This document shows, piece after piece, positions 8,705 through 28,194 of a DNA stretch of 37,793 bases; position 1 is the stretch's first letter, and every line of letters begins with the position of its first letter. Position numbers and translations under genes: made by a program. The notes beneath the pieces are model-generated. The model made no database searches. It saw only the letters and a program-made list of their open reading frames with translations, and was not told the DNA's origin. The DNA comes from a virus, in the UHGV virus genome UHGV-0272092, one strand, 5' to 3'.

Positions 8705-8733
8705 GGCCGCGAAAGCGGCCTGTGACATGTCAC
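8705..8733 (+). promoter_or_regulatory. GNRA-loop hairpin GGCCGC-GAAA-GCGGCC followed by palindrome GTGACATGTCAC (8722-8733)
   Basis: Read from sequence immediately after the stop of the 8440-8697 gene; no T-run follows. Confidence 0.5.
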
Positions 8734-8890
8734 GCTCACGTTATGACAAGCCTATGTACCCTGCTACACCAGATAATATCATAATAACTGCAACAGCAAA
8801 TTCGCCATCGTCAATGATACATTTACGGTTCATAACGCCAAGTGCAACAAGCGCAAACACAACAAGAATAAAAGCAATCATTTCTCATCC

Positions 8891-11365
8891 TTATTGCGGA
8901 GTGACATCCTGTGGTCGCCACCAGTATGTCTGGTTAAACTCTTTCTTCGAACGTTGCTCCATTTTACGCAAATAACCTGGTGAAAAATACTCCTGCATCT
9001 GGTTAAAGATCATGTGATCGAGAGCCGCCTTCAAGTACCAGAGATTCGCACCTGGCATCAGACCTTTCCCCAGCTTAACCAGATCACCACCAGTCTGCTC
9101 ACTCTTCCCTTCCACAGCATTTAACGGTATGCCCTGAGCAATCTTCACTACGTCATCAACCAGACCAGCTACCGGGCCAAGCATCGACGCCAGCGCGCCG
9201 CTTCCGTACCTAGTGTGATCTGACAATAAAAAGTCACCGTAAAGGCCAAGACCACCACCTTTCAGTAGAGCACCAAGCCAAAATTTAGCAGCATCTTCTC
9301 CTGTCATCTCGCGAGGATTACGACCAGACGCAAGGTCGTTAAGTTGCTGCGACAAAGCGCCAAGAATGGTCGTACTGGCAATAAACGTCGCAATATATGC
9401 CGCACGCCCACCAGCAGACGGCATACCCATAGCGCGTGACCAGTGACGCATAACCACCGAGATAGGGAACGATTTAAACAGGAAAACACTTCTCGTTAAT
9501 TCACCTTTCCATGTTCCACGCTGAATACCAGAACCGGTTATCAGTTGCTCACGTGCTCCCGGTGTAATAACAGCCATATCAACTTCTTCAGTTACGGCAC
9601 CGAGCAGTTTACGCATTGCCTCAAATTTCACGCGTTCAGGCTCACCAAGATGTTTAACTGCTGAATCAGGGATACGCATAATGCTTTCCGGTGTCAGCAT
9701 CGTATTATTACCGTTCCCCCAGTCCTCCTGTTTCGCCAGCTTCCATACGCTCCAGTCTGTGTCAGTAATCCCTTTGCTTTTCAGGATACGAAAATCAGAG
9801 TCATCGAGGCTACGAAGGTCTGGTGTACGTGACACTACTTCTCCCAGGCTTCCCATCATGGTTACGCCATAGGCGCGCTTGTGCGCATCTGACCATGCTG
9901 TAAGCCCACTGGCACGCATTACCGCCGTTGCCGCCCAACGAGACACTGACGGCCCCATATTATCCATCGCCCAGCGGTTAACGCTGCCAAGTAGAGATTC
10001 CATCGCCAGACCAGCGCGGCGCGCCCGCGCAAGTTCTGTACGGTTCGTTGGGTCCATAGCTTCAAGCTGGTTGCGGAATAACTGGTTCATTGGAAGGTTG
10101 GTAACCTTCGCAGACAGATACATGGTTCCAAGATCAGAGAACGATGACAGCAACGCGGATCCGAGTCTGCTGGCAACCAGCCAGTTGCGGATATTGTCAG
10201 ACCATCGCGCGATGTGCGGATTCGCTACAGGCTGTGTCTTTCCGGAAATAAAGTTGTACAGATTCTCTGTGTTGTTCGCCAGCCGCTCGACTTTACCGGT
10301 TTTACTCGGGTTAGCTGTTGCCGTTTCTGCCTTCACCTGATCAAGAAGAGAGCGGAAAACATGATCGGGGTTTGGGCCATATGTTTCCACCAGTGCAATA
10401 TCTTTACTGATACCTTCCAGGTGACCGACCATGATTTCCCATAGAGAGCGATCGCCATAAAGTTGCTGATATTGCAGATAGGAATCTGCATCTTTGAAAT
10501 GTATCTGTCGTGATGCATTACCACGGTTAGCACGTGCGCCGGAAATTCGCATTCCGGTATCAGTAAGCTTATTCAGCCCACCAGTAGCGATCGTGTTATA
10601 AGCCTCTCCAAGAAATGAAGACAACTCGGCATCGTTCATCAGTTGTCCATCGGCTCGGATATAATATTTGCGATCCAGCTTACCTATAACATCGCTAACC
10701 CACTTATCCTTTGATACTGCCCCAACCTTTTCCATAGAATGATGTTGAGGGATCCCCCAGTTTTCGAGATAGCCAATGTCCCCACCAGCATCATTAAACC
10801 GGCGGCGCAGCAGCTCTGTAACTTCTCTCCACGCCTTAGCACCGTTTCTTGCTTTAGCATTGCCAGTATTTTGCCCCCGCATTTCATATACCAGGTCACG
10901 TACGCCCGCTTCATCTTCAAACAGACCAAAAAAGCGAGGATCAACTGCTTCGAATGCCTCCTGCAATTGACTCAATGCATAATCACGGGTGGCTTTTGTT
11001 CTGGATTCAACAGAGAGGAAATTAGATTTACCGTCTGCATTAAAAGCTATAGTACGGTTAAGAGCGCCAAGTTTCCCATCAGCCCCTTGATAGCTATTGA
11101 TAAATTTATCCAATCTCTGACGCGCGGCTATAGTGAGAGCCACACGACGTTTCTTTAATGCCGCTTCTCGCTGTAATTCTTCAGATGCCAATTGTGCTGC
11201 TCGATATAGCCGCTCTGATTCGGAAAGTTGTCTCCACGACATCGGGTCATCACGAGCAATGGAGCGCATATTTCGATAAATGCGGTCTTCAATGTTCTGT
11301 ATTTCTCGCGCCGTTAACGTGCGCTGCGCCGCCTGCTGGACCGCTTGTATACATTCCTGTCTCAT
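8891..11365 (-). CDS. internal virion / ejection protein (824 aa)
   Basis: Large protein in the block between tail tube and tailspike, matching the T7 gp15/gp16 position. Confidence 0.5.
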   Translation of the reverse strand: MRQECIQAVQQAAQRTLTAREIQNIEDRIYRNMRSIARDDPMSWRQLSESERLYRAAQLASEELQREAALKKRRVALTIAARQRLDKFINSYQGADGKLGALNRTIAFNADGKSNFLSVESRTKATRDYALSQLQEAFEAVDPRFFGLFEDEAGVRDLVYEMRGQNTGNAKARNGAKAWREVTELLRRRFNDAGGDIGYLENWGIPQHHSMEKVGAVSKDKWVSDVIGKLDRKYYIRADGQLMNDAELSSFLGEAYNTIATGGLNKLTDTGMRISGARANRGNASRQIHFKDADSYLQYQQLYGDRSLWEIMVGHLEGISKDIALVETYGPNPDHVFRSLLDQVKAETATANPSKTGKVERLANNTENLYNFISGKTQPVANPHIARWSDNIRNWLVASRLGSALLSSFSDLGTMYLSAKVTNLPMNQLFRNQLEAMDPTNRTELARARRAGLAMESLLGSVNRWAMDNMGPSVSRWAATAVMRASGLTAWSDAHKRAYGVTMMGSLGEVVSRTPDLRSLDDSDFRILKSKGITDTDWSVWKLAKQEDWGNGNNTMLTPESIMRIPDSAVKHLGEPERVKFEAMRKLLGAVTEEVDMAVITPGAREQLITGSGIQRGTWKGELTRSVFLFKSFPISVVMRHWSRAMGMPSAGGRAAYIATFIASTTILGALSQQLNDLASGRNPREMTGEDAAKFWLGALLKGGGLGLYGDFLLSDHTRYGSGALASMLGPVAGLVDDVVKIAQGIPLNAVEGKSEQTGGDLVKLGKGLMPGANLWYLKAALDHMIFNQMQEYFSPGYLRKMEQRSKKEFNQTYWWRPQDVTPQ

Positions 11366-11370
11366 TTAAT

Positions 11371-13173
11371 TTAACCTCTCAAGAAACACGCCACAGCGAC
11401 ATCAAACAGGCTGGAATCCTGTATTGCCTGCTCACTTTCCCTGTTCGCTTCATCCAGTACTTCACGCGCGCTGCGCGATTGTGGATTACCATCATCATCC
11501 AGCACGGTGATTATCATGTCCGGATATTCAAGCAGCGAGTCTTCAGCTATACGCAGATCAATATCTCCTGCCGGATCTGCCATCATTTTTTGTTCTGTCT
11601 GTTGCAATATCTTACCGGGATCAAAAGGAGCTACTTCGTCTGGCGTCCTGACCTCTGCTGTTTTATAGAATGAAACAGCCTGAGCATTAAGTTCACTTTC
11701 TGCCTGCTGTCTCCGAGCCAGTTCTGCTCGAGCTTCAAAAAACTGACCGCCAGGCTCATGCGGTGCCAACGCGTTACGGGAAAATTCCAGGCGTTCTTGT
11801 GCCTGCCGGATTCGTTGGTCAATATCCCGAAGTCTGGCCTGTTTATCTGATCGAGCACGAGACAAAGCTTTACCGCTACCGGCTGGATCTTCTGCAAGAA
11901 TTTGTGCGCGCTGTTCAGTGAGATTTTCAATAATTCGTTGGCTATTAGCGATTTCAGACTGGTAAACCTGTCTATCGCCACGCGGCAAAAGCTGCGCGGC
12001 CTGTTCTTCAAGCAACCGATTTTCTATAGCGCGCGCCGTTACTCCATCATCTACAGATGACAGAGCCTCATTAACTGCCTGAGACAGCAGACTCTTGCGT
12101 CCAGGAATTTCACTGAAAGATGCAGACTCAACAATGCTGGCAACGTCTACAGGTCTCCCCTGGCTAACATCAGACATGGCTTTTCGCAGAGCCTGAATGT
12201 GCGAATTACGCGAAAGCACGTTGATCGGCACGCCGGGAGCAATATCAATTTCAGCATGATGAGCGGCATTCGCCGCCAGTGCAGCATCGATATCAACTGG
12301 TGAAAAATTTGGTGCGCTTGTAGACTCGCCGCGAGAGTTAATAAATCTGCCGACACCACCAAACGCCACCCCAAGAACAGCATCAATAGCAATTGCCTGT
12401 CGATCCAACACATCATACTGGTTAGCCATTTCGCTATAGCCACCATCACGAAGCGTTTTTGCAGTAAGCCCACGCTGTGCCATACCGAACGCAATATTTG
12501 TACCTGCGGCATAGGCAATATCTGGCGTTGCACGTACTGCTGTTGCTGCGGCGCGTCGCACTGAACTTTCACCCGTCCGCGCAAGCTGAGCCGCCACACC
12601 TTCCGCCAGCGCACCACCAGCACGTAACCCGAGGCTCATAGGGATCAGTGTTCCGGCACCAGCAGTAATACCCTGCACTAATCCCGCTTCCTGCGCCGTC
12701 CTGAAATCAACACCCTGTGCTGTAAGCCGTTCAAACTCAGAAAAACCCTGTAGAGAAGTTACCGCCGCAGCACCTCCGACCGGACCACCGAGCGTTGTAC
12801 CGACAACAGCCTGCCCGCCCATATCGAACAACCCATAAAGGACCTGCCCGGCGGTTCCGGTTGTCGCGGCATCAGGCGTCAGCCGCTTAACCTGCTGCTC
12901 TGCTAGTTTTCTCTGCTCAGCAATGTATGAAACTGAAGTGTCATTGATCGAGGTGTTTTCGTTAACAAACTGAGCAATCGGGGATACGATTTTATCCATC
13001 CCTGCCCATAGCAACTGATCTGGCTTTGCCACCAGCCCGGAGTACAAACCAGACAATGCCGCTCCTACAGCATTGTCGAAAAAACCAACATCGCTGTTAA
13101 AGCCAGCTGGATTTGATGCTGCTTCGTCAAGCTGCTGATTCTGGTTTACTGGATTAAGGCCAAAGTAACTCAT
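11371..13173 (-). CDS. internal virion / ejection protein (600 aa)
   Basis: Position and size; Gly/Ala-rich low-complexity regions; translationally coupled to the upstream gene (4-nt overlap). Confidence 0.5.
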   Translation of the reverse strand: MSYFGLNPVNQNQQLDEAASNPAGFNSDVGFFDNAVGAALSGLYSGLVAKPDQLLWAGMDKIVSPIAQFVNENTSINDTSVSYIAEQRKLAEQQVKRLTPDAATTGTAGQVLYGLFDMGGQAVVGTTLGGPVGGAAAVTSLQGFSEFERLTAQGVDFRTAQEAGLVQGITAGAGTLIPMSLGLRAGGALAEGVAAQLARTGESSVRRAAATAVRATPDIAYAAGTNIAFGMAQRGLTAKTLRDGGYSEMANQYDVLDRQAIAIDAVLGVAFGGVGRFINSRGESTSAPNFSPVDIDAALAANAAHHAEIDIAPGVPINVLSRNSHIQALRKAMSDVSQGRPVDVASIVESASFSEIPGRKSLLSQAVNEALSSVDDGVTARAIENRLLEEQAAQLLPRGDRQVYQSEIANSQRIIENLTEQRAQILAEDPAGSGKALSRARSDKQARLRDIDQRIRQAQERLEFSRNALAPHEPGGQFFEARAELARRQQAESELNAQAVSFYKTAEVRTPDEVAPFDPGKILQQTEQKMMADPAGDIDLRIAEDSLLEYPDMIITVLDDDGNPQSRSAREVLDEANRESEQAIQDSSLFDVAVACFLRG

Positions 13174-15683
13174 TGCGGAATATCTCCGGAGAATCTCTGA
13201 CGCTTCTGTGTCAGATTAAGAACAACGGGAGAACCATCATCTTTCAGCAGATAACCAGTACCAAGTTTCACCAGGTACTGACTATCGCCGTAACTTTGCA
13301 AACCATACTGACCAGGCGGTGTTTTTATCCCGGAGCCGACAACTTGTTCATTCCAAGCCTGATTAACCTGCTTATCGAATTGCTCTGCAGACATTCCCCA
13401 CGGCAAAAGGACATTCCCCATTCCGTTATAGTCATGCACGCCACCTGTAGCTACGTTAACAGCCTGTTTCCAGACATCATTGTCAATTTCGCCTGATACC
13501 ACGCCTTTTTTCGCCATCACACCAGCGTAATAATCCTTTGCGATCTCGTATGCCATTGATGCGCCCTGAGCGTCACCAGCAAATGCATCCTTCACCATGT
13601 CAGAAAACTCAAGGCGAAGATCAGCATCTTTAGGCATCGGAATACCTTTCGCATCATCAGTACCTTTACGAGCCGCCGCGCCAGCAAGAATTGTCTGCGC
13701 AGCGGTTTCAGGAGACACGGAAACATCCGGATTAAACCAGTTTTTTTCTGCCAAAATACCACCAGGCTTATCCATCAGTATCCCGGCAACGGCAGCAGAT
13801 GGAGCGTTGGCACTGATCTGCTGTAGTGCTGACATATACACCTGCCCACCACCAGTGCTCTGCCTGATGGTATCGAGATATGCTGCCTGTTGGGAAACTG
13901 GAGCATCACGAAAGAAAACACCGATCTGATTGGCCTCGTCTTTGGAAAAGAACGTCAGTGGAGTGCCATATGACTTAGCAAGGTCACTGACCTGAGCGGC
14001 ACGCAAGGCAACGCTCTGTCCAAAGTTATCCTTATTGCTCATGTCGATAGGCTTTGCCTGTCGGGAGGCAAGAGAGAACTGCACAGGATCCGACTGCCGC
14101 TGCTTTATCACCTGATTTGCAGCCGAAACAACGTTGTCATAAAGAGTTGCGCGTGCCGCATACCCCTCCCCTGTATCACCAGTATCCGGGCGTAATTGCT
14201 CAACATATGCTGTAATGCTGCTTGTCGGCATGTTGCGGAAAGAGCCTATATACTGTCCGGCGATCTGCGTATTCTTAAACTCGGTATATCGCAGGTTTCC
14301 TTCTCTGACTCCATAAGCTGCAATAAAATCATCCTCACCAGGTGGGTTAGGAAATTCAATGCCACGCATATACGCAGCCGTCGCATCGCGAACCCGGCTG
14401 TCGAGCATCGTTTTATATTCAGCCTGCTGTTGTCTGGCTAGTGCATCAGTCTGTCGCAACACGCTGGCCTGATCTGATTCACTTAAAGCATCGAACCAGG
14501 CTACACCGGTATAACGTTTATTTTTTGTCGGTAGCTGAGAAAGCCCCAGCGCAGCACTAACACCTGCAGTTAACTGCTGATCACTGTATGGCTGGCTACC
14601 GTTTTCATGATGGATAATGGCTGCACAAAGCGCCTTCAGGGTATCAGGATTTGATGCATCGAGAGGCTCATCAGCAGAAACGCCAAGTTGTTCGCACACT
14701 GCTTTGATATACGACATAGTGTCATTTTTATCAGTAGGCGGTGCCCAGCGATTAATTATCTCGCTGACGGTATCAATACCCTGCCGCTGATACGACATCA
14801 GGTTCCGCCCTAATGCACGAATACCGTGTTCAGGGGTTTCGAATTTGGCAAAGCGACCATCATCACCAGTCTGCCCAACCCACGGATTAGTTTTGCTGTA
14901 TTCAAGATTGCCGGGGTTATTGTTGCGTATACCGCGGGTACGATCGGAAGAGCCACTATCTGCTACAGCACGGCGAGAACCAGCAGCAGTATCGCTTAAC
15001 TCGCCGTTTTGCTGTCTTACCTGAAGATAGTTTGCTCCAATAGCATTTTGAGCAGTTGCTTTTGCTGTTGCTTCTTTAAACTCGATTTTCTTGGCCTGGA
15101 TTTGCTCGTCACTCCAGCCATGTGCAATGCCGTAATCCTCAATTTGCTGGAAAGTTTGCTTATTAGCCAATACGTATGCGGCGTTGTCGCCATACAATGC
15201 TGCGGCATTTTTACCATTGTTCAGCAGCGTAGCCTGAAACTGGCCTTCTTCGTAGGCATTTATTTGCCCTATCTCGTGCCGCCCGGCCTGCGTAGTGAAC
15301 TGAATGCGCTGCTGCTGCGCCTGCTGCATGAAAGCATTACGAGCCTGTTCATCCGGCAGCGACATAGCCAGTTGTTCGACCTGAGCATCAAACTGCTGCG
15401 TATACTCCTGACCTTTTCCAATAGCATTTTTCCCTTTCAGGTTAAGCAAACCTGTTTCAGGGTTATTCAGCAGATCGCTGCTTATCTGGCTTAAGCTAAG
15501 AGAAGCATCCTGAGCCATAGCAACATTCGCACGCTGTTTTGCCTGCGCAATAATACCTGCATATTGCTCTGCAACATCGCCAAGTACATCACCGACATTT
15601 GGTGTCTGAAACGATGAGAATCCCTGCGTCGAAATCCCTCTGCTCTGAACCTGACGGCCCGATGTTGTTGGTACAACTGGCAT
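13170..15683 (-). CDS. internal virion protein (837 aa), possible cell-wall-interacting domain
   Basis: Position; contains conserved-looking segment GIRNNNPGNLEY...HGIRALGRNLMSYQRQGIDTVSEIINRWAP whose function I cannot assign. Confidence 0.5.
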   Translation of the reverse strand: MPVVPTTSGRQVQSRGISTQGFSSFQTPNVGDVLGDVAEQYAGIIAQAKQRANVAMAQDASLSLSQISSDLLNNPETGLLNLKGKNAIGKGQEYTQQFDAQVEQLAMSLPDEQARNAFMQQAQQQRIQFTTQAGRHEIGQINAYEEGQFQATLLNNGKNAAALYGDNAAYVLANKQTFQQIEDYGIAHGWSDEQIQAKKIEFKEATAKATAQNAIGANYLQVRQQNGELSDTAAGSRRAVADSGSSDRTRGIRNNNPGNLEYSKTNPWVGQTGDDGRFAKFETPEHGIRALGRNLMSYQRQGIDTVSEIINRWAPPTDKNDTMSYIKAVCEQLGVSADEPLDASNPDTLKALCAAIIHHENGSQPYSDQQLTAGVSAALGLSQLPTKNKRYTGVAWFDALSESDQASVLRQTDALARQQQAEYKTMLDSRVRDATAAYMRGIEFPNPPGEDDFIAAYGVREGNLRYTEFKNTQIAGQYIGSFRNMPTSSITAYVEQLRPDTGDTGEGYAARATLYDNVVSAANQVIKQRQSDPVQFSLASRQAKPIDMSNKDNFGQSVALRAAQVSDLAKSYGTPLTFFSKDEANQIGVFFRDAPVSQQAAYLDTIRQSTGGGQVYMSALQQISANAPSAAVAGILMDKPGGILAEKNWFNPDVSVSPETAAQTILAGAAARKGTDDAKGIPMPKDADLRLEFSDMVKDAFAGDAQGASMAYEIAKDYYAGVMAKKGVVSGEIDNDVWKQAVNVATGGVHDYNGMGNVLLPWGMSAEQFDKQVNQAWNEQVVGSGIKTPPGQYGLQSYGDSQYLVKLGTGYLLKDDGSPVVLNLTQKRQRFSGDIPQ

Positions 15684-15695
15684 CTTATTATCCCC

Positions 15696-16235
15696 TTATC
15701 GACCGGTTGGAGTGCCAACAGCAGCAGAAATCGGCGCAGCCTTCTGAGAGAACGGGCTCCACGTTCCGCCGCCCATCTGGTATGCACCGTATGCTTTTAG
15801 TGGTGCCGTTAACAAAGTGCTGGTCATCGATGATTTAGCAGCCGACTGAGCAGCAGCCCCCTGTGCCTGAGCATTCATTCCCTGAACCTGATACCCATAT
15901 GCCTCACGCTGAGCATTATTCACTGTCGTTAACGCATCAAGAGTGCCGAACTGAGCATTATCCGCAAAAACGTCAAGAGCTGTTCCGCTACTTAATTCCG
16001 CACCGGTAGCCCCCATAGTGGCCGCCGCAGTGCCTGAGCGTTGACGCATTTCACGACGACGCTGATCCGCTTCAATATTCCCACGATTGATTGAATCCTG
16101 TGCCTGAGCTTCAGCAATTTCAGCATTCCGATCAGCTATGGCTGACTGGTATTTTGCCTGCTTGCTCTGGCTGTACATTGACGCGGCTGTGGATGCCACT
16201 GTGACGGCAACCAAAGCGATGGCTGGGTTACACAT
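15696..16235 (-). CDS. internal virion protein B-like (179 aa, N-terminal TM segment)
   Basis: Hydrophobic N-terminus AIALVAVTVASTAA; size and position parallel T7 gp14. Confidence 0.45.
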   Translation of the reverse strand: MCNPAIALVAVTVASTAASMYSQSKQAKYQSAIADRNAEIAEAQAQDSINRGNIEADQRRREMRQRSGTAAATMGATGAELSSGTALDVFADNAQFGTLDALTTVNNAQREAYGYQVQGMNAQAQGAAAQSAAKSSMTSTLLTAPLKAYGAYQMGGGTWSPFSQKAAPISAAVGTPTGR

Positions 16236-16699
16236 TATTTTCTCTCCATGTGAAATCTGTGGAAATTAAGACCAAGAGCACCATAAGGCGCGGCTTCTTC
16301 AAGCCTGAATCCAAGCCAGTGCAGCCATGCTTTGGCAACATGGTTTCGCTCGTCGACGTAGTTTTCCAGGCGCGGATAAACTGCCAGCATCTGCTGCAAT
16401 ACAGGGCGGCAGTGGCGAAGAAATGTCTTCTGATATTTTTCAATACGGCTGGTTCCTACCAGCCAGGGCGTACCATTGCCACCGATCATTGACGCCGGAG
16501 ATACGCCAAACATGGTTACCAGTTCTCCGTTCGCAAATCCTGACCAGGCCATAGTCGCAGTACGCAGACCAACACGCAGCGCATCTTCGGTAGTCATCAG
16601 TGATACCGCATACAGTTCGTCAATATCAGCCTGACGAACATCCGGCAAAATCATCTGAAGATGCTCTTCGGTTGCGGGAATAATTTGAACATTGATCAT
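16235..16699 (-). CDS. internal virion protein A-like (154 aa)
   Basis: Size and position parallel T7 gp13; overlapping start/stop with neighbours. Confidence 0.4.
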   Translation of the reverse strand: MINVQIIPATEEHLQMILPDVRQADIDELYAVSLMTTEDALRVGLRTATMAWSGFANGELVTMFGVSPASMIGGNGTPWLVGTSRIEKYQKTFLRHCRPVLQQMLAVYPRLENYVDERNHVAKAWLHWLGFRLEEAAPYGALGLNFHRFHMERK

Positions 16700-19170: not shown

Positions 19171-19778
19171 CAGGACAACCTCGCAATGGTAAACTCGTCA
19201 ACCGGTGGCTGTGGTTCCTGTGATTCATTCTGGCTATGCGAGCCAGCACTAAGAATCACGCGATTGTACATATTGAGAGCAAATGTACCGAGATCCGCAT
19301 TCCCAGTCAGCGCCATGTTAATGGCTGCCGCAAGACGCCAGGCCAGCGCCTCCATAAAAATGGCATCAAACATGTTTACATCTGAAACGCGAGAGACATA
19401 CTTGAGCCATGCCTGAGGCTGGTCTGTGTAGATCAACTTTCCTGTTCCGTTGGTGTCTGCACCAACTTCGTACTGAACGCGCATTGCTGCTGTTGGATTG
19501 CGTACACCAGGAAGCATAATTTCAGTAATGCGCAGACAATCTGACGGGTACTGGTACGCATATTCCCAGTCAGGCGGTGGATTGCTCGTATCTGCAAGCG
19601 CCACGCGTTTGGTAGCAAAGTTCCAGTCAAAATCAGAAAGCACAGCATCACGGCAGGCCTCAAAGTGCAGCGAACATTCCCCCGCTTCCTTGCTGGCTTC
19701 CGTCAGGCTGTTAATGCTGCGGCTGTTGCCAATATTGGACAGCGCACGATTACAGATCTCTACTACAGAGGCCATCAC
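19170..19778 (-). CDS. tail tubular protein A-like (adaptor), 202 aa
   Basis: Size and position immediately upstream of the tubular B-like gene (T7 gp11 analogue). Confidence 0.45.
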   Translation of the reverse strand: MMASVVEICNRALSNIGNSRSINSLTEASKEAGECSLHFEACRDAVLSDFDWNFATKRVALADTSNPPPDWEYAYQYPSDCLRITEIMLPGVRNPTAAMRVQYEVGADTNGTGKLIYTDQPQAWLKYVSRVSDVNMFDAIFMEALAWRLAAAINMALTGNADLGTFALNMYNRVILSAGSHSQNESQEPQPPVDEFTIARLS

Positions 19779-20493: not shown

Positions 20494-20494
20494 C

Positions 20495-20932
20495 TTAACC
20501 AGTTACTTTTGAGCGGATCGGATACGGCGTATTGGCATCAACATCAAGACTGATACCAGCAGTGAATTCGCCAGCCGTTAGTGGGCCAGTTGCGACGGAG
20601 TAGTTAACACGCAGATATCGCTGAACACCGGCAGGCACCTTTGCAGAAACAACTCGTTTACCTGCTGTCAGGGCGGTCTTTGCCAGTGCGCCACTATCAT
20701 AAATAGTGGTCCATGATCTGTTATTCTCACTCGTCTGCAACTGGATGTTTACAGTTGCATCACCGCTTGCTGCGGCGGCTGTGTTAACCAGCGCCCAAAA
20801 CTCAAGCGGGTAACCCACGCCGATATCACGACGTTTTCCGTCAATTGGACCGAGATCGATTACGTCAGTAGAAGCCGCGGTATTCGTAACCGCCTGAGCT
20901 TCGGAGAACATCAACAGTTTGTCGGTGATCAT
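20495..20932 (-). CDS. putative capsid decoration / head protein (145 aa)
   Basis: Immediately downstream of the major capsid gene; Gly/Thr/Ala-rich. Confidence 0.4.
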   Translation of the reverse strand: MITDKLLMFSEAQAVTNTAASTDVIDLGPIDGKRRDIGVGYPLEFWALVNTAAAASGDATVNIQLQTSENNRSWTTIYDSGALAKTALTAGKRVVSAKVPAGVQRYLRVNYSVATGPLTAGEFTAGISLDVDANTPYPIRSKVTG

Positions 20933-20983
20933 CTTCTTTCTCCATTAGTGGGTCTGTTACGACCCACAGGTTAATAACAGGCG

Positions 20984-21976
20984 TTACACCACGCGGGCTT
21001 CTGTTTCCAGAAGCGCATCAGTTTCACGGATTGGTACACCACGGAATGAAGTCCACCACTCGCCTTCTGTCTCTTTTACGCTGATAGCCAGAGATGTTTT
21101 CTCCAGAGACTGCAGATCAAGAGCCTGGCCTACAGTGCGGTTCATGTAGAACACCGGGCGGCCCATGCCACGGTTTGGAATGCGATGTAGTGCTTTAACC
21201 ATCAACTTCGCAATATTTGCGGCAGAGGATGGTTCTGAAAGATTGCTGACATCGATGTTTGCAATGCGAACAACATAACGCCAGTCACGCAGAGCAAGTC
21301 CGTTATCCCATTTGTAATGGGTGCGATAGCCTTCGTACTTGCCGCCATTAGCATCTTCCAGTGTCACCTGGCCTTTATCTTCCATCTGGATGCCAGCCTT
21401 CTGCCCTTTCGGGAAGATGCCATGCACGGTGTTTTCGCCCCACACCACTAACCAGATTGAGGTGTTATCTGTACCCGTGCCACCAGCATCAATGATGTTC
21501 TGAGCATTACCCGCAGACAGGCTGGAATAGCGGGAGGACAGTCCCATAAACTGCTGAGGGTTAACGCTGGAATCACCATAAAACAGCGTCTGCGCCATCT
21601 GCTGATTCATCGCTTCAATAAATGCGCGGTCTTCAGACAGGCGGAATTCGGCGGTATTGCCGTTCAGATCAGCCAGTGACTTATCGACTTCCGCATAGGT
21701 TTCCAGCATGCCAACGGAATCGGTTACCTGCACTGTGGTTGATTTGCTTGGCTGTACGCCATAGTTCAGCAAACGCCAGGTAGCTGAAGGTAAACCAGAA
21801 CGAATGGTGGTTCGGTGTCCGGTAGGAAGGTTCCCTTCGACAAAAGGCATATCCTGAAGGATCGGGTTAGTTTGACCGAGAAGCTCGATAATCTTATCGA
21901 CTTTCCCGTTTGGATCGACGCGCTTACCCCAGTCAGCCAGCGTTAGCGCAGTTAAGCCTTTAACAGCCATTGTCAT
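20984..21976 (-). CDS. major capsid protein (330 aa)
   Basis: Position after portal and scaffold; size typical of HK97-fold capsid proteins. Confidence 0.7.
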   Translation of the reverse strand: MTMAVKGLTALTLADWGKRVDPNGKVDKIIELLGQTNPILQDMPFVEGNLPTGHRTTIRSGLPSATWRLLNYGVQPSKSTTVQVTDSVGMLETYAEVDKSLADLNGNTAEFRLSEDRAFIEAMNQQMAQTLFYGDSSVNPQQFMGLSSRYSSLSAGNAQNIIDAGGTGTDNTSIWLVVWGENTVHGIFPKGQKAGIQMEDKGQVTLEDANGGKYEGYRTHYKWDNGLALRDWRYVVRIANIDVSNLSEPSSAANIAKLMVKALHRIPNRGMGRPVFYMNRTVGQALDLQSLEKTSLAISVKETEGEWWTSFRGVPIRETDALLETEARVV

Positions 21977-21984
21977 TTCCTCTC

Positions 21985-22686
21985 TTATTTGCCATAGAGC
22001 ACTTCGGCCGCACTACGCTGGCCTTCATTACCACCGGTGACCATGCCATCTTCAGACATCGCCTTTCCGATTTTCACGAACGTTTTGACCAGATCAGGGT
22101 GATTACCCAGCCCGGTGGTGTTCAGATATTCTTTGAGTTCAGGTGTCCCGAACTGGTCAAGCGCACGCTGTGCGGCGCTAAGGTTAGAAATCAACTTGTC
22201 GCCACCGATTTCTTTGTCGGCTTTTACATCCGCAGCCCACTGCTCGGTTGTTTTCTGCCAGGCTTCTGCCTGGCGCTGCTGAACACCTGCCAGAATCTTC
22301 GGATAAGCATCAACCAGCTTTTGCGCTTGCTCGTTGGTCAGGTTTAGTTCTCGCGCCACCGGCTCGAATTCCTTCAACGCTTCTGTATCCAGCTCTACGC
22401 CTTCGGCAGCCTGAAACTCGTACTTTTCAGGCGCACCCTCTGGTTTATCGCCGTCCTTTTTTTCATCCTGCTTATCGTTTTCAGGCTTTTTGTCATCAGC
22501 AGGTTTATCGCCATCAGCAACAGGTTGTGGCTTATCACCTTCCTGTTGTGATGGATCACCAACTGGAGCAGGGTTATCACCTGCAGGCGCTGACGGTTCT
22601 GACGCAGCCGGAGCTGCTCCACCATCGACTGGTTGCTCATTGCAAAGACGGCGATACAGCAAACGCTCAAATAAATTCATGATCAC
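21985..22686 (-). CDS. putative scaffolding protein (acidic, Pro/Asp/Lys-rich N-terminal half)
   Basis: Low-complexity acidic region plus helical C-terminal half; sits between portal and major capsid. Confidence 0.5.
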   Translation of the reverse strand: MIMNLFERLLYRRLCNEQPVDGGAAPAASEPSAPAGDNPAPVGDPSQQEGDKPQPVADGDKPADDKKPENDKQDEKKDGDKPEGAPEKYEFQAAEGVELDTEALKEFEPVARELNLTNEQAQKLVDAYPKILAGVQQRQAEAWQKTTEQWAADVKADKEIGGDKLISNLSAAQRALDQFGTPELKEYLNTTGLGNHPDLVKTFVKIGKAMSEDGMVTGGNEGQRSAAEVLYGK

Positions 22687-22979
22687 TCCTGTTCACTGGC
22701 CTCTTTGGCCATCTTCAAATACTGTTCAGGGCAATGCGCCATAACGCGCTGAAACAGTTCCAGCGCCAGATTGCGTTGCCCCTCATTAAATGCCATTGCC
22801 ATAGCATCCATCGGAGAGATAGCGGAAAACACCCGGCCTTTCTCCAGCACCGACCAGACAACGCGACGCCCCTGTTCACTGCTCATGACAAAGCGAATGT
22901 CATCAATTTCACGCTGTGCCATGTCACGTTGCTTACGGGCGTTTTCTTCTTTCAGTTGATCGTCTTCGAAATCTGTCAT
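22683..22979 (-). CDS. hypothetical head-morphogenesis protein (98 aa)
   Basis: Overlapping start/stop with portal and scaffold genes. Confidence 0.4.
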   Translation of the reverse strand: MTDFEDDQLKEENARKQRDMAQREIDDIRFVMSSEQGRRVVWSVLEKGRVFSAISPMDAMAMAFNEGQRNLALELFQRVMAHCPEQYLKMAKEASEQE

Positions 22980-24655
22980 TGTGATTGCCCACCCTGACCA
23001 CTAACTGCATTCGCCATAGCTGACAAAACACTCGGATCCGAAGTTTTAGCTTCGCTTAGCGTCTTGGCACCCTGTGCCGCCGCCATCCCCATCGCCATCA
23101 TTTGTTGCTGCTGTTGTTGCTGTGCCCGTTGCTGGCGAGCCTGCTCAACCTGTTCCTGCGGAACAATGACGGTTGGAGACACTCCGGACATATCAGCGAA
23201 TGCATCGATCGCCTGATCAACGTTGAGTTTGTCGAGAGCTTCTGGTTTCGCTTGCGCAAGTTGACCAATGAAGTTAACCGTGGACGCCAGACTGGACAGG
23301 CCGATAGACTTCTGCGCCTGAGCCATGACGGAAATGTATTCGACCTTCAGGGGCATGCCTTCCATCGCGTCAGGCGGTGTCGGCAGCATGTTTTTACGCA
23401 CCATCATCGAGAAAGCGCGGTCAATGAGAGGATTAAGACATTCGTCGTTCAGACGCTCCAGAACCGGCCCCAACATCAGAAGTTTTTCTTCTTTCATTTC
23501 GATCACCGCTTCAACAGGCATCGAGCGGGTATTGATGTTCTGCAACATCATGAACAGATCGACAAAGTAGGCGCTGTTAATGATTTGACGGGTGTCCTGA
23601 ATGTCTGCCACCAAATCTGCTGTACTGGGGTTAACCAGATAAGCAGGCCTGAAACCATCCTGACCAGTAATCTGATCGATATACGTGATGTCGCCAGGAA
23701 GAAGGGAGGCACGCTGATTCTTGAGGGAAGTCGGAGCAACCATCGGCGGATTGGTGGCTTTATCAATCAACTGCGACTTGCGCTTCTGGAGAAGCTGCAA
23801 TGCCTTAACAGGTCCAAGCGCCAGCATACCCGGGCATGATGATCCATAAACATCTTCGCCGTTAACTTCCCAGCGCGGAGCCATAATTGGAAACTCATCG
23901 AATCCGGACTCACGCAACAACTTGTCGTTATCGCCACCAACCTCGTAATAAACCGATTTGAATGGCTTGTTCTTGCTATCCAGCTTCGATGTATCGCGGT
24001 CAATGTTCGGGTAAACCGAATGCATCACTTCAATCCACTTCTCGTAGGTGCCGCTTTCCCACATGCTTTTTACGGATTCGCTGACGTTATTTAGCCCGAA
24101 CTCCTGAACAAGCTGACGAACAGTCATAGAGAACTTGCGAAAACAGGTGTCCACACTGCCACGAGGTGAGTTAGCCAGGTAGTAACTGCCTATCGGGAAT
24201 GGCATTGTGCGAATGATGTCCTCGTCATCCTCCAGCACCGCCATTGCACCAGTGCTGTATGTGCCGAGGCTTCCGTATAACTGCGGAAGAGACTGGTAGA
24301 GATTCGACTTATTGAACATATCGTTCATGCGGTTCTGAACTGCCTCAAGCCACAACTTAACAGGGCCATAGTCCATCATTTCAGGATCTGGCGTAGCCAG
24401 GCGAAACCACGGACGGGCGGGGCTTGTTATGCCTGACATCATGCCGCTGGCAAGAGTGCGCGCCGCCATAGTCCCGGTCGAATCAATAATGCGTGTATTG
24501 CGTCGATCGTTACGGTTAACCTCAGAAGTCAGAAAGCGGGAACCACGCGGGTTGATGTAATCACTCAACTCGCGCCAGTGCGGCTCGAACGACTGACGCT
24601 CGCTTTCAAGTTGTGCGAACTGTTTGTTCAATCGCTCTTTAGTTGTTTCCGCCAT
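22976..24655 (-). CDS. portal protein (559 aa)
   Basis: Size, position after terminase, RBS GGAG 9 nt upstream of ATG 24655. Confidence 0.75.
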   Translation of the reverse strand: MAETTKERLNKQFAQLESERQSFEPHWRELSDYINPRGSRFLTSEVNRNDRRNTRIIDSTGTMAARTLASGMMSGITSPARPWFRLATPDPEMMDYGPVKLWLEAVQNRMNDMFNKSNLYQSLPQLYGSLGTYSTGAMAVLEDDEDIIRTMPFPIGSYYLANSPRGSVDTCFRKFSMTVRQLVQEFGLNNVSESVKSMWESGTYEKWIEVMHSVYPNIDRDTSKLDSKNKPFKSVYYEVGGDNDKLLRESGFDEFPIMAPRWEVNGEDVYGSSCPGMLALGPVKALQLLQKRKSQLIDKATNPPMVAPTSLKNQRASLLPGDITYIDQITGQDGFRPAYLVNPSTADLVADIQDTRQIINSAYFVDLFMMLQNINTRSMPVEAVIEMKEEKLLMLGPVLERLNDECLNPLIDRAFSMMVRKNMLPTPPDAMEGMPLKVEYISVMAQAQKSIGLSSLASTVNFIGQLAQAKPEALDKLNVDQAIDAFADMSGVSPTVIVPQEQVEQARQQRAQQQQQQQMMAMGMAAAQGAKTLSEAKTSDPSVLSAMANAVSGQGGQSQ

Positions 24656-24669
24656 TTCAATGACTCCGG

Positions 24670-24876
24670 TTACTGACCAAGCAGCGTTTTACCGCTGGTA
24701 TTAGCGGTTGATGTGTCGCCCTGAGAACCGGTAAGCAGCGTAGAACTACGACCAGCAGCAGCGCGACGGCGACGAGTTTCTTCGTCGCGGGCATCAACAA
24801 CGGCGGCATCCTGCTCCTGTGGTGCTGCCTGAACTTCTGGTGTTGCAGGCACTGATGGTGAGCTACCCATGCACAT
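24670..24876 (-). CDS. small protein upstream of portal (68 aa)
   Basis: Start context GGAGTCATTGATATG is near-identical to the portal start context GGAGTCATTGAAATG. Confidence 0.45.
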   Translation of the reverse strand: MCMGSSPSVPATPEVQAAPQEQDAAVVDARDEETRRRRAAAGRSSTLLTGSQGDTSTANTSGKTLLGQ

Positions 24877-24914
24877 ATCAATGACTCCGTACGCAATTAA
24901 ATTATTACCAATTT

Positions 24915-24925
24915 AACCACATATG
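24915..24925 (-). promoter_or_regulatory. conserved element AACCACATATG upstream of the head operon
   Basis: Identical to 8309-8319; preceded by ATTACC-N5. Confidence 0.45.
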
Positions 24926-24966
24926 ATTTATTTATCGTAGGTAGTTGACATTTAACGCACAAATTA

Positions 24967-24981
24967 TTACCTTTCAGGTAA
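24967..24981. promoter_or_regulatory. operator-like palindrome TTACCTTTCAGGTAA
   Basis: Identical to the copy at 8349-8363. Confidence 0.55.
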
Positions 24982-25303
24982 CCAAAGAGTTCATTCCGGT
25001 TACTAACCTGACTGGCTTGTCGTTAAATTGAACAGGTGGAGTGAGCTTTTATTTTGAGCAGTACGGCGTATGGCACATGCGCCGATAGCGGTCTGGATAC
25101 GTTTAAGGGGCACCCTCCCTTGCTCGGGCAAACGAACCAGGTAGCCGGAATGTGCAAGTCGAGCGGTTTTATTCCGCGCACGGGGATTCACCATCCCGGC
25201 GATTCGGTGTGACGCCTCGGAAGAGACGAGGGTACAACGATGAGAGCATTTATGGAGCCGCGACAAAGTGTGGCGCCTTAACAGGCTAAGTGCTCTCAGC
25301 GTT

Positions 25304-25380
25304 GTGGCATTAGCTCAGTTGGACAGAGCAACCGCCTTCTAAGCGGTTGGTCGCAGGTTCGAATCCTGCATGCCACGCCA
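25304..25380 (+). tRNA. tRNA-Arg (anticodon UCU), 77 nt including CCA
   Basis: Hand-folded cloverleaf: acceptor GTGGCAT/ATGCCAC, D-stem GCTC/GAGC, anticodon stem ACCGC/GCGGT with loop CTTCTAA, T-stem GCAGG/CCTGC with loop TTCGAAT, discriminator G, CCA. Confidence 0.85.
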
Positions 25381-25423
25381 GAATCACGCCTAAGGACCGT
25401 GATGCCAGAAGTTCCAGGTGCTT

Positions 25424-25466
25424 GGCGGTGATGGTTTCCCTTGAAGGACTATCACCGCCCTTTTTA
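25424..25466 (+). terminator. rho-independent terminator downstream of the tRNA
   Basis: Stem GGCGGTGATGG / CTATCACCGCC followed by CTTTTT. Confidence 0.65.
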
Positions 25467-25543
25467 CAGCAGGACGCCATTGCGATGACTTCATGCTGTA
25501 AACCAGTACAGCCACGGAAGGCATAACTCATTGCTTCCAGTTC

Positions 25544-25568
25544 GCCCGGTTCGTCCGGGCATTTTTTT
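25544..25568 (+). terminator. second terminator/attenuator-like hairpin immediately upstream of the RBS of the 25581 gene
   Basis: GCCCGG-TTCGT-CCGGGC followed by A and seven T, then AAGGTG RBS. Confidence 0.5.
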
Positions 25569-25580
25569 AAGGTGAAAATC

Positions 25581-25913
25581 ATGAAAGAGAAGACTGCAGC
25601 TGAGCGCTATGCCGCAGCTATCAATGCCGCGATGGCGATTGTAAACCTGCGTGAAGAGATTAAAGATCTCCTTGCAATTATCCATAACAACCTGACATGT
25701 ACAGAGTTGCTTGGCGGTCAGTACAACGGTGAGGCGGTGAAGGAGGCATTTAAAAATGCCGAGGTAGGAATAATTCCAGCAAACTATGTCAAGGCTGAAT
25801 GTGTGCTCCTAAAGGCACGAGTGAGTCTGCATGAAGATCCTGGTAATCTCGGTCGAACTGCAATGCGTTACGTGATAGACGAGTCGAATGCCAAACACAA
25901 TCTACCGAAATAA
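25581..25913 (+). CDS. hypothetical protein (110 aa), plus-strand gene between terminase and portal
   Basis: ATG 25581 with RBS AAGGTGA; track ORF opens at GTG 25572. No family recognised. Confidence 0.55.
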   Translation: MKEKTAAERYAAAINAAMAIVNLREEIKDLLAIIHNNLTCTELLGGQYNGEAVKEAFKNAEVGIIPANYVKAECVLLKARVSLHEDPGNLGRTAMRYVIDESNAKHNLPK

Positions 25914-25916
25914 CAC

Positions 25917-25928
25917 CGTGACATGTCA
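25917..25928. promoter_or_regulatory. 12-bp palindrome GTGACATGTCAC (copy 2 of 3)
   Basis: Exact repeat of 8722-8733 and 28183-28194. Confidence 0.5.
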
Positions 25929-26003
25929 CAAACAGACAGCCTATGAGCTGGCTTTGTTTTATCCTCACCAGAGGATATCAACGACATTATCCCCACCAGC
26001 GGA

Positions 26004-27479
26004 TTAAGCATAGGGATCGTAATCTGTGATGGCCTTGCCTTGCTGGTTCTGCTGACCGGGAATTCGCAGACGCTTCGACACAGGGAACGCAAACGTCAGC
26101 AGTAGCGCATCGCCTTTACCAGGAGAACGCCCAAGTCGCTCTTTGATATCTTCCTTCGGTTCGATAACGATTTTACCGTCCACTCGAACTTTGTACTCTG
26201 CTGCCGACAGGTCGTCCGCTGTTTCCTGGTCATCCAGCATGCCGCCCAGCCTCAGCCATGTCTTGCATGAATTGAACATCTCCCCACGCTTGTTGAGCAT
26301 CTGCGGGTCAGTAGACGCGCCACCGAACGGAACAAGTTGCCATGTACGACCCCATCCGTCACCGATTGACTTCAGACCGGTTCCGTAACCGAAGTCGATG
26401 AACACCGCGTCAGCCTGATACTGGTCTTCAAAGTCAGCGATACGCTTCGCCATAATCAGATCGTCGGTAGTCTTGTTGCCAGTCCACAGCACCTTACTGT
26501 GTAGCCCCTGCCGCAGGTATATCACCGCGTCATCAACGCCTGAATATGCCGGGTCAACACCGATTATCACCGGAGCATGCGCCACCTGCGCAGCGGTTAC
26601 CACCCGTTTCATTGCCTCATCAGTAAGACCGGTAGGGATAAACTGCAATTCAGATGCATCAGGGAATATGCCGCGCACACGGATTTTAACGAAGTCGCTG
26701 TCTTCCCCGTAGTCATCAACCCATTTCTGCAACTGCTGTTTGTTAGTGCCTTCCACCGTTCGGCTGTCAATCTGCGCAGTTTTCCAGCGGTGTTTATATT
26801 TGCGGAAACATTCGCGGAAACGTCCGGTATTACGCGTCGGGTTTCCGAACGCCACCCAGATAATCTCAGTGTCTTCGTCCGTTAGTGCACCCTCGGCAAC
26901 TTCCCACACCAGATCCGCAATGTTCGACGCTTCATCGAATACCACGATGATGCGTTTGCGCTCGTTGTGTAGTCCGGCGAATGCCTCAGTGTTGTGCTCA
27001 GACCAGGGGATTGCGTCAGCTCGCCACCGCTTGTCGTGTCCAGGATCATTGCTGTACATCGCGGTAGCGGTACAGGTAAACCAGTCTTTCGTGATAGCAA
27101 GGTTCGACCACTTGATAATTTCCGGCCAGGTCTTCGTTCGTAGCTGGTTGTCGGTGTTGGCGGTCACCACGACCTTACAATCCTCGCAAGTGGACATGCC
27201 CCAGTTGATCAGCATTGAGATGAATGCGGATTTACCAATACCGTGACCCGAAGCACGTGCCAGCATAAGCGGCTGATAGCGCGTCTCTGGATTCTGCAGG
27301 TGATCACGTATCTCTCGGAACGCATCAGCCTGCCACTGACGTGGGCCGGTAGCATGTGCCAGTTCAGTCCCCTCTTCCCCCCACGGGAACGCATAGAGGG
27401 CATAGCCAAGCGGATCGTGAGTGAACCCTGCAATATCCTCGATCAACTGCTCTTCAGGAGATAACGCTGTATCTGTCAC
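26004..27479 (-). CDS. terminase large subunit (491 aa)
   Basis: Size, position downstream of the small subunit with 4-nt overlap; N-terminal ATPase-like and C-terminal nuclease-like composition. Confidence 0.8.
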   Translation of the reverse strand: MTDTALSPEEQLIEDIAGFTHDPLGYALYAFPWGEEGTELAHATGPRQWQADAFREIRDHLQNPETRYQPLMLARASGHGIGKSAFISMLINWGMSTCEDCKVVVTANTDNQLRTKTWPEIIKWSNLAITKDWFTCTATAMYSNDPGHDKRWRADAIPWSEHNTEAFAGLHNERKRIIVVFDEASNIADLVWEVAEGALTDEDTEIIWVAFGNPTRNTGRFRECFRKYKHRWKTAQIDSRTVEGTNKQQLQKWVDDYGEDSDFVKIRVRGIFPDASELQFIPTGLTDEAMKRVVTAAQVAHAPVIIGVDPAYSGVDDAVIYLRQGLHSKVLWTGNKTTDDLIMAKRIADFEDQYQADAVFIDFGYGTGLKSIGDGWGRTWQLVPFGGASTDPQMLNKRGEMFNSCKTWLRLGGMLDDQETADDLSAAEYKVRVDGKIVIEPKEDIKERLGRSPGKGDALLLTFAFPVSKRLRIPGQQNQQGKAITDYDPYA

Positions 27480-28072
27480 TGATTACCATCCTGACGTTCT
27501 TTGAGTCGCTTCCTGGCTGCTGCTATGCGATCAGCAATTGTCACATTCACATTAACATCCAGACGTTCTTTGAACGCGTTGACATCAACATGCTTACCAA
27601 TCAGCTCAAGGTTCTTCACCTTGTCAGGCCATTTAATTTTTTTGAGGATTGTCTCTATCGAATCCTCGTTCATGTTCATGATGGTCGATGACAGATCAAA
27701 GCCACTAAGCGTAGTGCGCCAGATTTTCGGCCACTCACGGATTGGTTTAAGGCTCCCATCGTCGTTGAGGATGTCGATCACGTCCATCTGGTCGATCTCC
27801 ACCAGGCGCATGAGAACGTAATCAGCACTGACGCGCATTCGTTTGTTGCGCTCCTCCATCAACTCGGCAATCCGTTTTTGAATGCGTTCATCGCGCATCA
27901 TGACACTGGCTTTAACTGCCGCTGTATTTGGGGAGAATCCTGCGTTAATCGCTGCCTGAGTCTGGTTTTCAGGCGTTTTGATGTATGACTGGCAATAAGC
28001 CTCCTGCATTGCTGTTAGTGGCTTAAATTGCGTTGATTTGCGTTTATAGGTTTTAGGTTCAGCAGGCATCAT
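27476..28072 (-). CDS. terminase small subunit
   Basis: Position; start moved to MMPAEPK (ATG 28072, RBS GGTGG) because the upstream extension to 28150 contains a terminator hairpin and direct repeats. Confidence 0.65.
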   Translation of the reverse strand: MMPAEPKTYKRKSTQFKPLTAMQEAYCQSYIKTPENQTQAAINAGFSPNTAAVKASVMMRDERIQKRIAELMEERNKRMRVSADYVLMRLVEIDQMDVIDILNDDGSLKPIREWPKIWRTTLSGFDLSSTIMNMNEDSIETILKKIKWPDKVKNLELIGKHVDVNAFKERLDVNVNVTIADRIAAARKRLKERQDGNQ

Positions 28073-28081
28073 AACCACCGT

Positions 28082-28111
28082 GGTAATAGTTACCGTTGTG
28101 GTAATAGTACC
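28082..28111 (-). repeat. tandem direct repeat GGTAATAGT(T)ACC x2 directly upstream of the small terminase start
   Basis: GGTAATAGTTACC (28082-28094) and GGTAATAGTACC (28100-28111). Confidence 0.5.
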
Positions 28112-28141
28112 ATGCAAAATAAAGCCGCCATAGTTGGCGGC
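28112..28141 (-). terminator. rho-independent terminator between the accessory early genes and the terminase genes
   Basis: Stem GCCGCCA / TGGCGGC; on the minus strand followed by TTTATTTTG. Confidence 0.6.
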
Positions 28142-28182
28142 AGTATTCAAAACCCATCAAATTCATCATGCATAATCTACTC

Positions 28183-28194
28183 GTGACATGTCAC
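28183..28194. promoter_or_regulatory. 12-bp palindrome GTGACATGTCAC (copy 3 of 3), overlapping the stop of the 28191-28538 gene
   Basis: Exact repeat. Confidence 0.5.

Follow-up and report, generated by a model that had tools for sequence, protein, structure and literature searches.

The 37,793-nt virus genome UHGV-0272092, called the window below, is that of an epsilon15-like podophage of the genus Uetakevirus and carries a 12-bp palindrome, GTGACATGTCAC, in three exact copies, referred to as sites A (28183–28194), B (25918–25929) and C (8722–8733). With moderate confidence we read the three palindromes as the cognate sites of a protein of the phage's own, a ribbon-helix-helix (RHH) domain joined to a Cys4 zinc knuckle, which would act as a roadblock or insulator at operon ends. 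The analysis is computational and covers conservation, the co-occurrence of gene and site, the predicted fold of the protein, the co-variation of the site centre with a β-strand and the placement of the sites at operon 3′ ends. The terminase region of the window is 96–97% identical to that of HEMP4, phiv142-3, TL-2011b and phiV10 and about 80% identical to that of Salmonella phage epsilon15 (eps15), Enterobacter phage Tyrion and Klebsiella phages. The structural genes lie on the minus strand. The elements around the three copies are the following.

8402–8420: LexA-box-like sequence TACTGTATAAATATACAGT that precedes the ant-like gene
8440–8697, plus strand: ant-like gene, 85 aa, PHROG 450, with a weak match to the anti-repressor PHROG 1760; converges on site C
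8704–8721, minus strand: terminator of site C, directly after the palindrome, AGGCCGCTTTCGCGGCCT then TTAAATTT
8722–8733: site C, flanked by the final gene of the structural operon and the operon's terminator; the ant gene converges on it from the opposite side
8741–8881, minus strand: membrane-protein gene, 46 aa, last of the structural operon, TAA at 8741–8743; homologue of phiV10 p21
25572–25913, plus strand: moron gene, 113 aa, PHROG 27507; TAA at 25911–25913, 4 nt before site B
25918–25929: site B, between the terL terminator hairpin and the stop of the convergent, exchangeable moron
25937–25950, minus strand: hairpin of site B, located between the palindrome and the stop of terL, with a T-rich tail that enters the palindrome
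26004–27479, minus strand: terL, matched (as is terS) by Pfam Terminase_2
27476–28150 (limits of the open reading frame), minus strand: terS
28124–28141, minus strand: terminator of site A, GCCGCCAACTATGGCGGC then TTTATTTT
28183–28194: site A, which holds the TGA stop (28191–28193) of the RHH/Cys4 gene
28191–28538, minus strand: gene of the proposed binding protein, PHROG 536, last gene of the early-right operon

Placement and conservation of the palindrome

No copy of GTGACATGTCAC occurred in any of 100 dinucleotide-preserving shuffles of the window, and a first-order Markov model expects 0.029 sites of the whole class GTGAC-N2-GTCAC in it. The original prediction, made from the letters of the window, had reported three exact copies and held them unlikely by chance; the shuffles bear this out and all three copies exist, the second of them one base away from where it had been put (25918–25929, not 25917–25928). 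It had also placed every copy near a stop codon and two of them around the terminase genes, and this is accurate: a stop codon lies inside the third copy, 4 nt from the second and 24 nt from the first, and both terminase genes fall between the second and the third. A search that allows two mismatches adds a single further site, at 22916, which is the chance level. This copy (22916–22927, GTGCCATGTCAC, one mismatch) lies within the gene at 22683–22979 and is kept as GTGACATGGCAC, read in the structural-gene direction, in phiV10, PAS61 and 34 IMG/VR loci; most likely it reflects ordinary coding conservation and is not a fourth site.

Read along the unit that is being closed, the order is the same at all three sites: stop codon, palindrome, intrinsic terminator. 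At site A the terminator follows 42 nt further on (minus strand), and tandem operators of the type bound by the main repressor (Rep) and terS lie about 80–110 bp downstream. Site C is situated 24 nt past the ant-like TAA (8695–8697) and 7 nt from the TAA of the 46-aa membrane-protein gene; the stem of its terminator is conserved among relatives and the loop variable. The palindrome itself is not an intrinsic terminator (−1.2 kcal/mol, z −0.03), and separate hairpins are present at 8704–8721, 25937–25950 and 28124–28141. The GTGACA of site A yields one 9-of-12 sigma-70 promoter-like match, no more than chance, and a −35 element at this position was rejected on that ground. A main repressor operator was rejected as well: the eps15 operator ATTACC-N5-GGTAAT is a separate motif, found elsewhere in the window.

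Among the epsilon15-like relatives from E. coli, Salmonella, Enterobacter and Klebsiella the 12-mer is invariant at the three map positions, within flanks that differ by about 20%. The eps15 copies lie at 39612, 2142 and 19517, SPN1S and PAS61 carry the 12-mer at all three positions, as does Tyrion (where one copy spans the ends of the database record), BUCT711 has it at two of the three plus one other place, and phiV10 has two exact copies and the variant GTGACATGTTAC. Counting the motif in related phages, a check that the original prediction had put forward, gave 131 exact copies over the first 80 IMG/VR loci, with six one-mismatch variants in the same loci apart from one coding-region sequence. 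Site A is kept in 78 of 80 IMG/VR loci, site C in 71 of 80 relatives and site B in 55 of 84. In eps15, SPN1S, PAS61, Tyrion and BUCT711 site A again stands at the end of the homologous gene. Of 5,426 complete E. coli genomes, 697 carry the gp49-like gene together with site A (query 28100–28560), for the most part on the chromosome, and in 482 of these the match spans 80% or more of the query.

Each of the three sites is a mosaic junction. The relatives that keep site B do so next to several unrelated morons, most of which stop exactly 4 nt from the palindrome. At site C, where homology breaks at 8691–8721, three different upstream genes are found, two of which end on the TGA within the palindrome, together with several downstream cassettes. 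At site A, insertions of 200–400 bp start directly past the palindrome in four loci (L029, L058, L071 and L083). The last of these also has an ‘empty’ site B junction, in which GTGACAT is all that is retained and runs straight into TTAAAAAAATGCCCGG. The segment between the terL stop and a hairpin at 25544–25560 (25561–26003) is a hot spot for cassettes (loci L009–L088), and some cassettes that replace site B extend into the 3′ end of terL.

The PHROG 536 family and the GTGAC-N2-GTCAC site

The gene whose stop codon lies in site A has homologues in eps15 (gp49), phiV10 (p55) and N15 (gp46), and beyond the Uetakeviruses its family, PHROG 536, is present in N15, phiKO2 and in Yersinia P2-like, Mu-like, Vibrio, Serratia and Pseudomonas elements. 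At first search, the genomes of these distant homologues gave no repeated perfect palindromes. Relaxing the central two bases exposed the pattern, which is set out below by element.

N15: GTGACTGGTCAC at 39269, over the stop codon of gp46, and at 33237, within repA; its complement at 28550, past the repA operon
phiKO2: sites at the three positions known from N15, including the gp45 stop
L174 (N15-type repA, protein 50% identical): GTGACATGTCAC on the stop of the family gene, and two more copies
Yersinia P2-like phage YenM201.16: GTGACGCGTCAC on the gp13 stop
Mu-like prophage L181: a site coding for ‘VTGH’ 27 nt before the stop of the family gene; another within the transposase gene
Pseudomonas fluorescens-group contig L184 (63% GC): two copies, one of them GTGACTGGTCAC over the family gene's stop codon
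Vibrio K233 and the related L180: each with three sites, of which one is 11–20 nt upstream of terS
L185 and L189: tandem pairs 23 bp apart, at 12475/12498 and 14923/14946
L187: a site 15 nt upstream of the family gene's own start
L190: two sites that flank the family gene

Outside the Uetakeviruses, the TGA of the family gene thus lies inside a GTGAC-N2-GTCAC site in L174, N15 (gp46), phiKO2 (gp45), YenM201.16 and L184. The 17 non-Uetake sequences that bear the family (352 kb) hold 27 sites against 0.165 expected, with at least one site in 13 of the 17. When the half-site was permuted (n = 60), GTGAC gave 27 sites, the next best sequence four and the median was zero. Lambda and P2, which lack the gene, have no GTGAC-N2-GTCAC sites; these two were the only family-negative phage genomes used as controls, the remaining comparisons being with Markov expectations and permuted half-sites. 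From this co-occurrence we consider it quite likely that the PHROG 536 protein and the GTGAC-N2-GTCAC site belong together as a pair. The original prediction had named, as one candidate role, recognition by a phage regulator such as the Cys-rich 28191–28538 product, and this idea gains strong comparative-genomic support as well as agreement from a predicted RHH fold.

Two of the unrelated contigs, L185 and L189, one of which is from Serratia, carry their sites as tandem pairs, that of L185 between convergent genes. Since 23 bp corresponds to two helical turns, as in cooperative RHH operators, the arrangement suggests that the protein may bind cooperatively on one face of the helix. Within repA of the N15-like elements the site recurs about 620 nt from the start codon (L091 33237, L175 36062, L174 6647, L178 5092), has the same centre as the other sites of that phage and is distinct from the annotated SopB partition sites. 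K233 (L090) in addition has a true 13-bp form of matS, the site of the host protein MatP, at 19491–19503 (GTGACACCGTCAC), over the TGA stop of an 81-aa membrane-protein gene.

The true start of the 28191–28538 gene is probably the GTG at 28529, because the homologues are 112 aa long. Neither Pfam nor NCBIfam has a model for the family. An alignment of 40 diverse PHROG 536 members has a basic N-terminal segment, RKxxQRxR, in which R11 and R16 are nearly invariant, followed by a short hydrophobic strand, two helices and a C-terminal C-x2-C...C...C knuckle with C82 and C85 invariant and C102 nearly so. The predicted layout is an N-terminal basic helix, the ribbon-helix-helix, a long helix and the C-terminal Cys4 knuckle. 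In the monomer model the product has the β-α-α fold of the RHH class and combines an RHH domain with a Cys4 knuckle; its best fold matches include MatP, and a Foldseek search of the PDB returned one RHH protein and nothing further.

Across the lineages the outer GTGAC and the basic helix motif are constant. The central two bases are often the same or nearly so within a phage and differ between phages, some phages having two centres, and they go with the β-strand of the protein as follows.

β-strand K[ILV]EL (Uetake, L174): centre AT
β-strand RRD[WG] (N15, phiKO2, L178): centre TG/CA
β-strand E[ILV]Rx[RK] (YenM201.16, K233, L180, and the near-site of L177): centre GC or AC
β-strand R[IK][ED] (L181, L184, L187, L190): centre NG

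In solved RHH–DNA complexes (Arc, MetJ, CopG) the β-ribbon reads the centre of the site. Because the centre tracks the β-strand while GTGAC and the basic motif stay constant, the data fit a division, drawn by analogy with those complexes, in which the ribbon would read the centre and the basic helices the half-sites.

A proposed phage-encoded protein at operon ends and its alternatives

In the reading we favour, an RHH dimer would sit on the dyad of GTGAC-AT-GTCAC, cooperatively where sites are in tandem, with its antiparallel β-ribbon (..RKIELVL.. in the window) reading the central base pairs in the major groove and the conserved N-terminal basic helix (RKxxQRxR) holding the invariant outer half-sites. 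A site kept on the gene's own stop codon would let protein and target be inherited as one unit. The protein would be made early, from the last gene of the early-right operon, and then occupy the 3′ boundaries of three transcription units: early-right against terminase (A), terL against the convergent moron (B) and the structural operon against ant (C). Bound beside intrinsic terminators it could serve as a roadblock or insulator that limits read-through and the conflict of convergent transcription, and it might bridge sites through its C-terminal domain. Binding, its stoichiometry and its effect on transcription are what we infer here. The stop codon–palindrome–terminator anatomy of all three copies fits such a role, which the original prediction had listed among its candidates as a transcription roadblock that insulates convergent operons, and a roadblock or insulator function of the bound protein is put forward tentatively, as one possibility. 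On this reading the sharp conservation of the three mosaic junctions in epsilon15-like phages is accounted for, and a widespread family with no assigned function acquires a testable DNA target, together with an annotation signature, GTGAC-N2-GTCAC beside the gene of a CxxC-containing protein of about 112 aa. It is unusual in that a conserved site lies on the stop codon of the regulator's own gene and the other sites at operon 3′ ends, not promoters, and the pairing of β-strand classes with site centres provides a natural series for RHH specificity.

Several observations pull the other way. The sites are not at recognizable promoters, and they show no evident part in classical repression or activation. 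In other elements they are found inside the repA or MuA gene or directly upstream of terS, and no single roadblock story accounts for these placements, which suggest that the same protein throttles other units or has an architectural role. An exact N2 site is lacking in four of the 17 family-bearing sequences: there are two 11-bp N1 variants in L186, a one-mismatch copy 2 nt past the stop in L177, and no site in L188 (a partial contig) or L191. Site B is replaced by another cassette in 29 of 84 relatives and is thus dispensable in roughly one relative out of three. Few independent lineages underlie the specificity classes. MatP, whose site has the same half-sites, is present in nearly all hosts, so that the single Pseudomonas case is alone in excluding a host contribution.

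That a host chromosome-organizing protein, MatP or SlmA, binds the sites and the phage thus borrows host nucleoid factors is nevertheless improbable. The matS site is GTGAC-RNY-GTCAC, 13 bp (PMC3603311, PMC6907758), with half-sites identical to those of the phage site and a centre one base longer (RNY in place of NN), so that the two are a single central base apart. The SlmA-binding site (SBS) is the 12-bp GTGAGTACTCAC, and a review notes that MatP and SlmA sites share the flanking 4 bp (PMC3020112; PMC3116907). Escherichia, Salmonella, Klebsiella, Enterobacter, Yersinia, Serratia and Vibrio, the host genera here, presumably all bear MatP, and Vibrio K233 has its one true matS form. Against this, the spacing is 12 bp, not 13, in 131 of 131 Uetakevirus and 27 of 27 non-Uetake copies, the 13-bp form is absent from the window, and the motif follows the phage gene into the Pseudomonas contig. 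The genus Pseudomonas is not known to carry MatP. Phages that share a host group differ in the centre, which tracks the β-strand of the phage protein, and a single host protein would not account for this. A survey of 500 prophages found no true matS (PMC3603311); the 12-bp form would have been invisible to it. With the wrong spacing everywhere, a centre that varies with the phage protein and the pair present in Pseudomonas, host MatP is unlikely as the binder. SlmA was rejected on published base requirements: G, T, A and G are strongly preferred at positions 1, 2, 4 and 5 of its site (PMC3020112), whereas the phage site has C at position 5 and A at position 6. SlmA is moreover a TetR-family helix-turn-helix protein, although its site resembles the phage palindrome in length and in the outer four bases, GTGA....TCAC; among the window proteins scanned against Pfam, which were part of the genes, none is TetR-like.

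As passive linkers, or hotspots for module exchange provoked by a nuclease, the palindromes would simply be kept by recombinants, and the homology breakpoints at all three sites (8691–8721, the moron that abuts B, the insertions after A), the choice of upstream genes and downstream cassettes around site C and the RecT/YqaJ recombination pair encoded by the window phage would agree with this. We give the idea little credence: 12 bp alone is too short for RecT-type exchange, the neighbouring hairpins vary where the 12-mer is constant, and the motif class occurs in unrelated backbones beside one protein family and inside the essential repA and MuA. Module exchange is compatible as a secondary effect, in that a bound protein or conserved island would favour viable junctions. 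The original prediction had also offered a hotspot marking module junctions; the breakpoints are there at every copy, but the invariance and the co-travel with one family point to a selected site and not a passive linker, and the simplest account of the sharp junctions is that they arise secondarily, from a conserved island under selection where genes meet. Carriage of the palindrome by a mobile moron was rejected, since homologues of phiV10 p03 occur in two other phage families (in Akira and mEpX1) and have no palindrome there. A part in packaging, with the sites belonging to pac/cos recognition or to DNA protection or marking and the RHH protein a terminase accessory, has an equally slim chance. 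Site A precedes terS, the terminase genes are enclosed by A and B, the K233 and L180 sites stand just past an HNH gene and before the terS start, the usual place of cos in HK97-type phages, the L186 N1 variant is 55 nt upstream of terS, and the palindrome is where the database records of phiV10 and Tyrion open. Tyrion, however, was reported to be circularly permuted with terminal redundancy (PMC5754475), so that these record openings are a convention and not physical ends, and a cohesive end was rejected; the sites of N15-like phages are 7–18 kb from cos, no site is close to the packaging genes in the P2-like and Mu-like members, and three equivalent sites per genome are not what a single packaging-initiation site predicts. 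Least probable by far is an RNA element, a small hairpin in the 3′ untranslated region that would assist termination, processing or stability. Each of the three copies is transcribed, 3′ untranslated and just upstream of an intrinsic terminator; yet the 12-mer folds no better than shuffles, more than 150 copies across very distant lineages hold no compensatory stem changes, and a stable hairpin was rejected on both counts. The invariant half-sites are the signature of a protein–DNA site, a palindromic loop and orientation-independence are unnecessary for an RNA stem, and some copies lie within coding regions.

For the phage-encoded RHH protein, MatP/matS is a close comparison. In both systems the copies are dispersed, often away from promoters and few per replicon, the binding protein has an RHH domain, and a basic helix (K-x3-RAR) precedes the β-strand, the latter likeness being judged by eye and without statistics. 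The phage protein differs in having no MatP four-helix bundle and a Cys4 knuckle in place of the coiled coil, and matS is confined to the Ter macrodomain of enterobacteria and vibrios whereas the phage sites occur on many phage types, the Pseudomonas contig among them. Sequence homology to MatP was undetected by hhalign (probability 0.1%), a Pfam scan of the phage protein gave no match to the MatP models (PF06303, four-helix bundle; PF17414, RHH/coiled coil), and a homologue search from a MatP query returned near-identical E. coli sequences only. The RHH repressors (P22 Arc and Mnt, CopG, omega and ParG, and the antitoxins MazE and ParD) likewise have short dyad-symmetric targets, tandem sites two helical turns apart, as in two lineages here, and a site linked to the protein's own gene. 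The known members bind promoters or centromere repeats upstream of operons, whereas the phage sites lie at 3′ ends, and the C-terminal Cys4 domain is foreign to those families. The SopB centromere sites of N15 and phiKO2 are also few scattered palindromes, one of them inside repA, bound by a phage protein, but they differ in sequence (GTGCGACCACGGTCGCAC in phiKO2), in position and in their ParB-type binding protein.

The C-terminal half bears some likeness to the TraR/DksA C4 zinc-finger proteins (F TraR, P2 Orf82), in which a long helix also precedes a C-x2-C-G-x2-[ILV]-P knuckle and of which a member, P2 Orf82, is encoded in a phage early operon. An hhalign comparison with F TraR gave 54% probability (E 1.3e-4) over residues 49–110, the helix-plus-knuckle half; a profile search of PDB sequences gave weak TraR and YbiI matches (E about 0.4), P2 Orf82 reached 3% in hhalign, and Pfam zf-dskA_traR (PF01258) does not match the phage protein. 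The Cys spacing differs, and the helix is the second RHH helix of the phage protein. The N-terminus of TraR enters the secondary channel of RNA polymerase, which a second RHH helix could not. The sequence comparison makes this likeness weakly suggestive, a lead only. A doubtful extension of the RHH reading would make PHROG 536 and GTGAC-N2-GTCAC a phage-borne counterpart of MatP/matS, with a TraR-like zinc module that bridges sites or engages elongating RNA polymerase. Bridging would then fold the phage chromosome into operon-sized loops, the polymerase version would be a site-specific termination or antitermination factor at operon ends, and the phage sites, being almost identical to matS, would be able to interact with the handling of the host chromosome by MatP/MukBEF or to compete with it. 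The searchable literature holds no description of the motif or of a function of the family, although the original eps15, phiV10 and N15 genome papers, which were beyond reach, may mention the repeat; a literature search for the exact 12-mer and six variants returned mammalian primer matches only, and nothing relevant.

Other features of the window phage

The operator of the main repressor in the eps15 record, ATTACC-N5-GGTAAT, has 11 matches with at most two mismatches in the window, against 0.98 expected. They lie at the following positions.

8348–8364: Rep-type operator
24966–24982: Rep-type operator
28071–28105: Rep-type operators
32160–32238: Rep-type operators
34509–34525: Rep-type operator
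35221–35299: Rep-type operators

Each late block is preceded by one, terS immediately by a tandem pair, and further matches are in the immunity region. Because Rep-type operators head the late blocks, the arrangement suggests that the main repressor directly shuts several late promoters. The real start of terS is probably near 28072, judging by the comparison with eps15 and by the Rep-type operators. The homologue of the ant-like gene is annotated ‘ant: anti-repressor’ in Salmonella phages SPC32H and SPC32N.

From its gene order the window appears to be a circular permutation of a complete phage genome and not an integrated prophage with host flanks. A methylase and an integrase (595–1257, 1453–2703) at the left end are followed by the lysis, tailspike, structural and terminase genes, then by the early-right and immunity regions, with exo/RecT at the right (36678–37700); the attP region, which lies between int and the lysis genes, seems unbroken. 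One tRNA-Arg(TCT) gene (25304–25380) lies between the promoter region of the portal operon and the moron, the position of the annotated tRNA-Arg of O157 typing phages 9 and 10. The tailspike (5125–8244, minus strand) has End_N_terminal, β-propeller, β-barrel, tail-spike and Peptidase_S74 chaperone domains, and because this is the full endosialidase domain set the phage is probably specific for the K1 polysialic-acid capsule.

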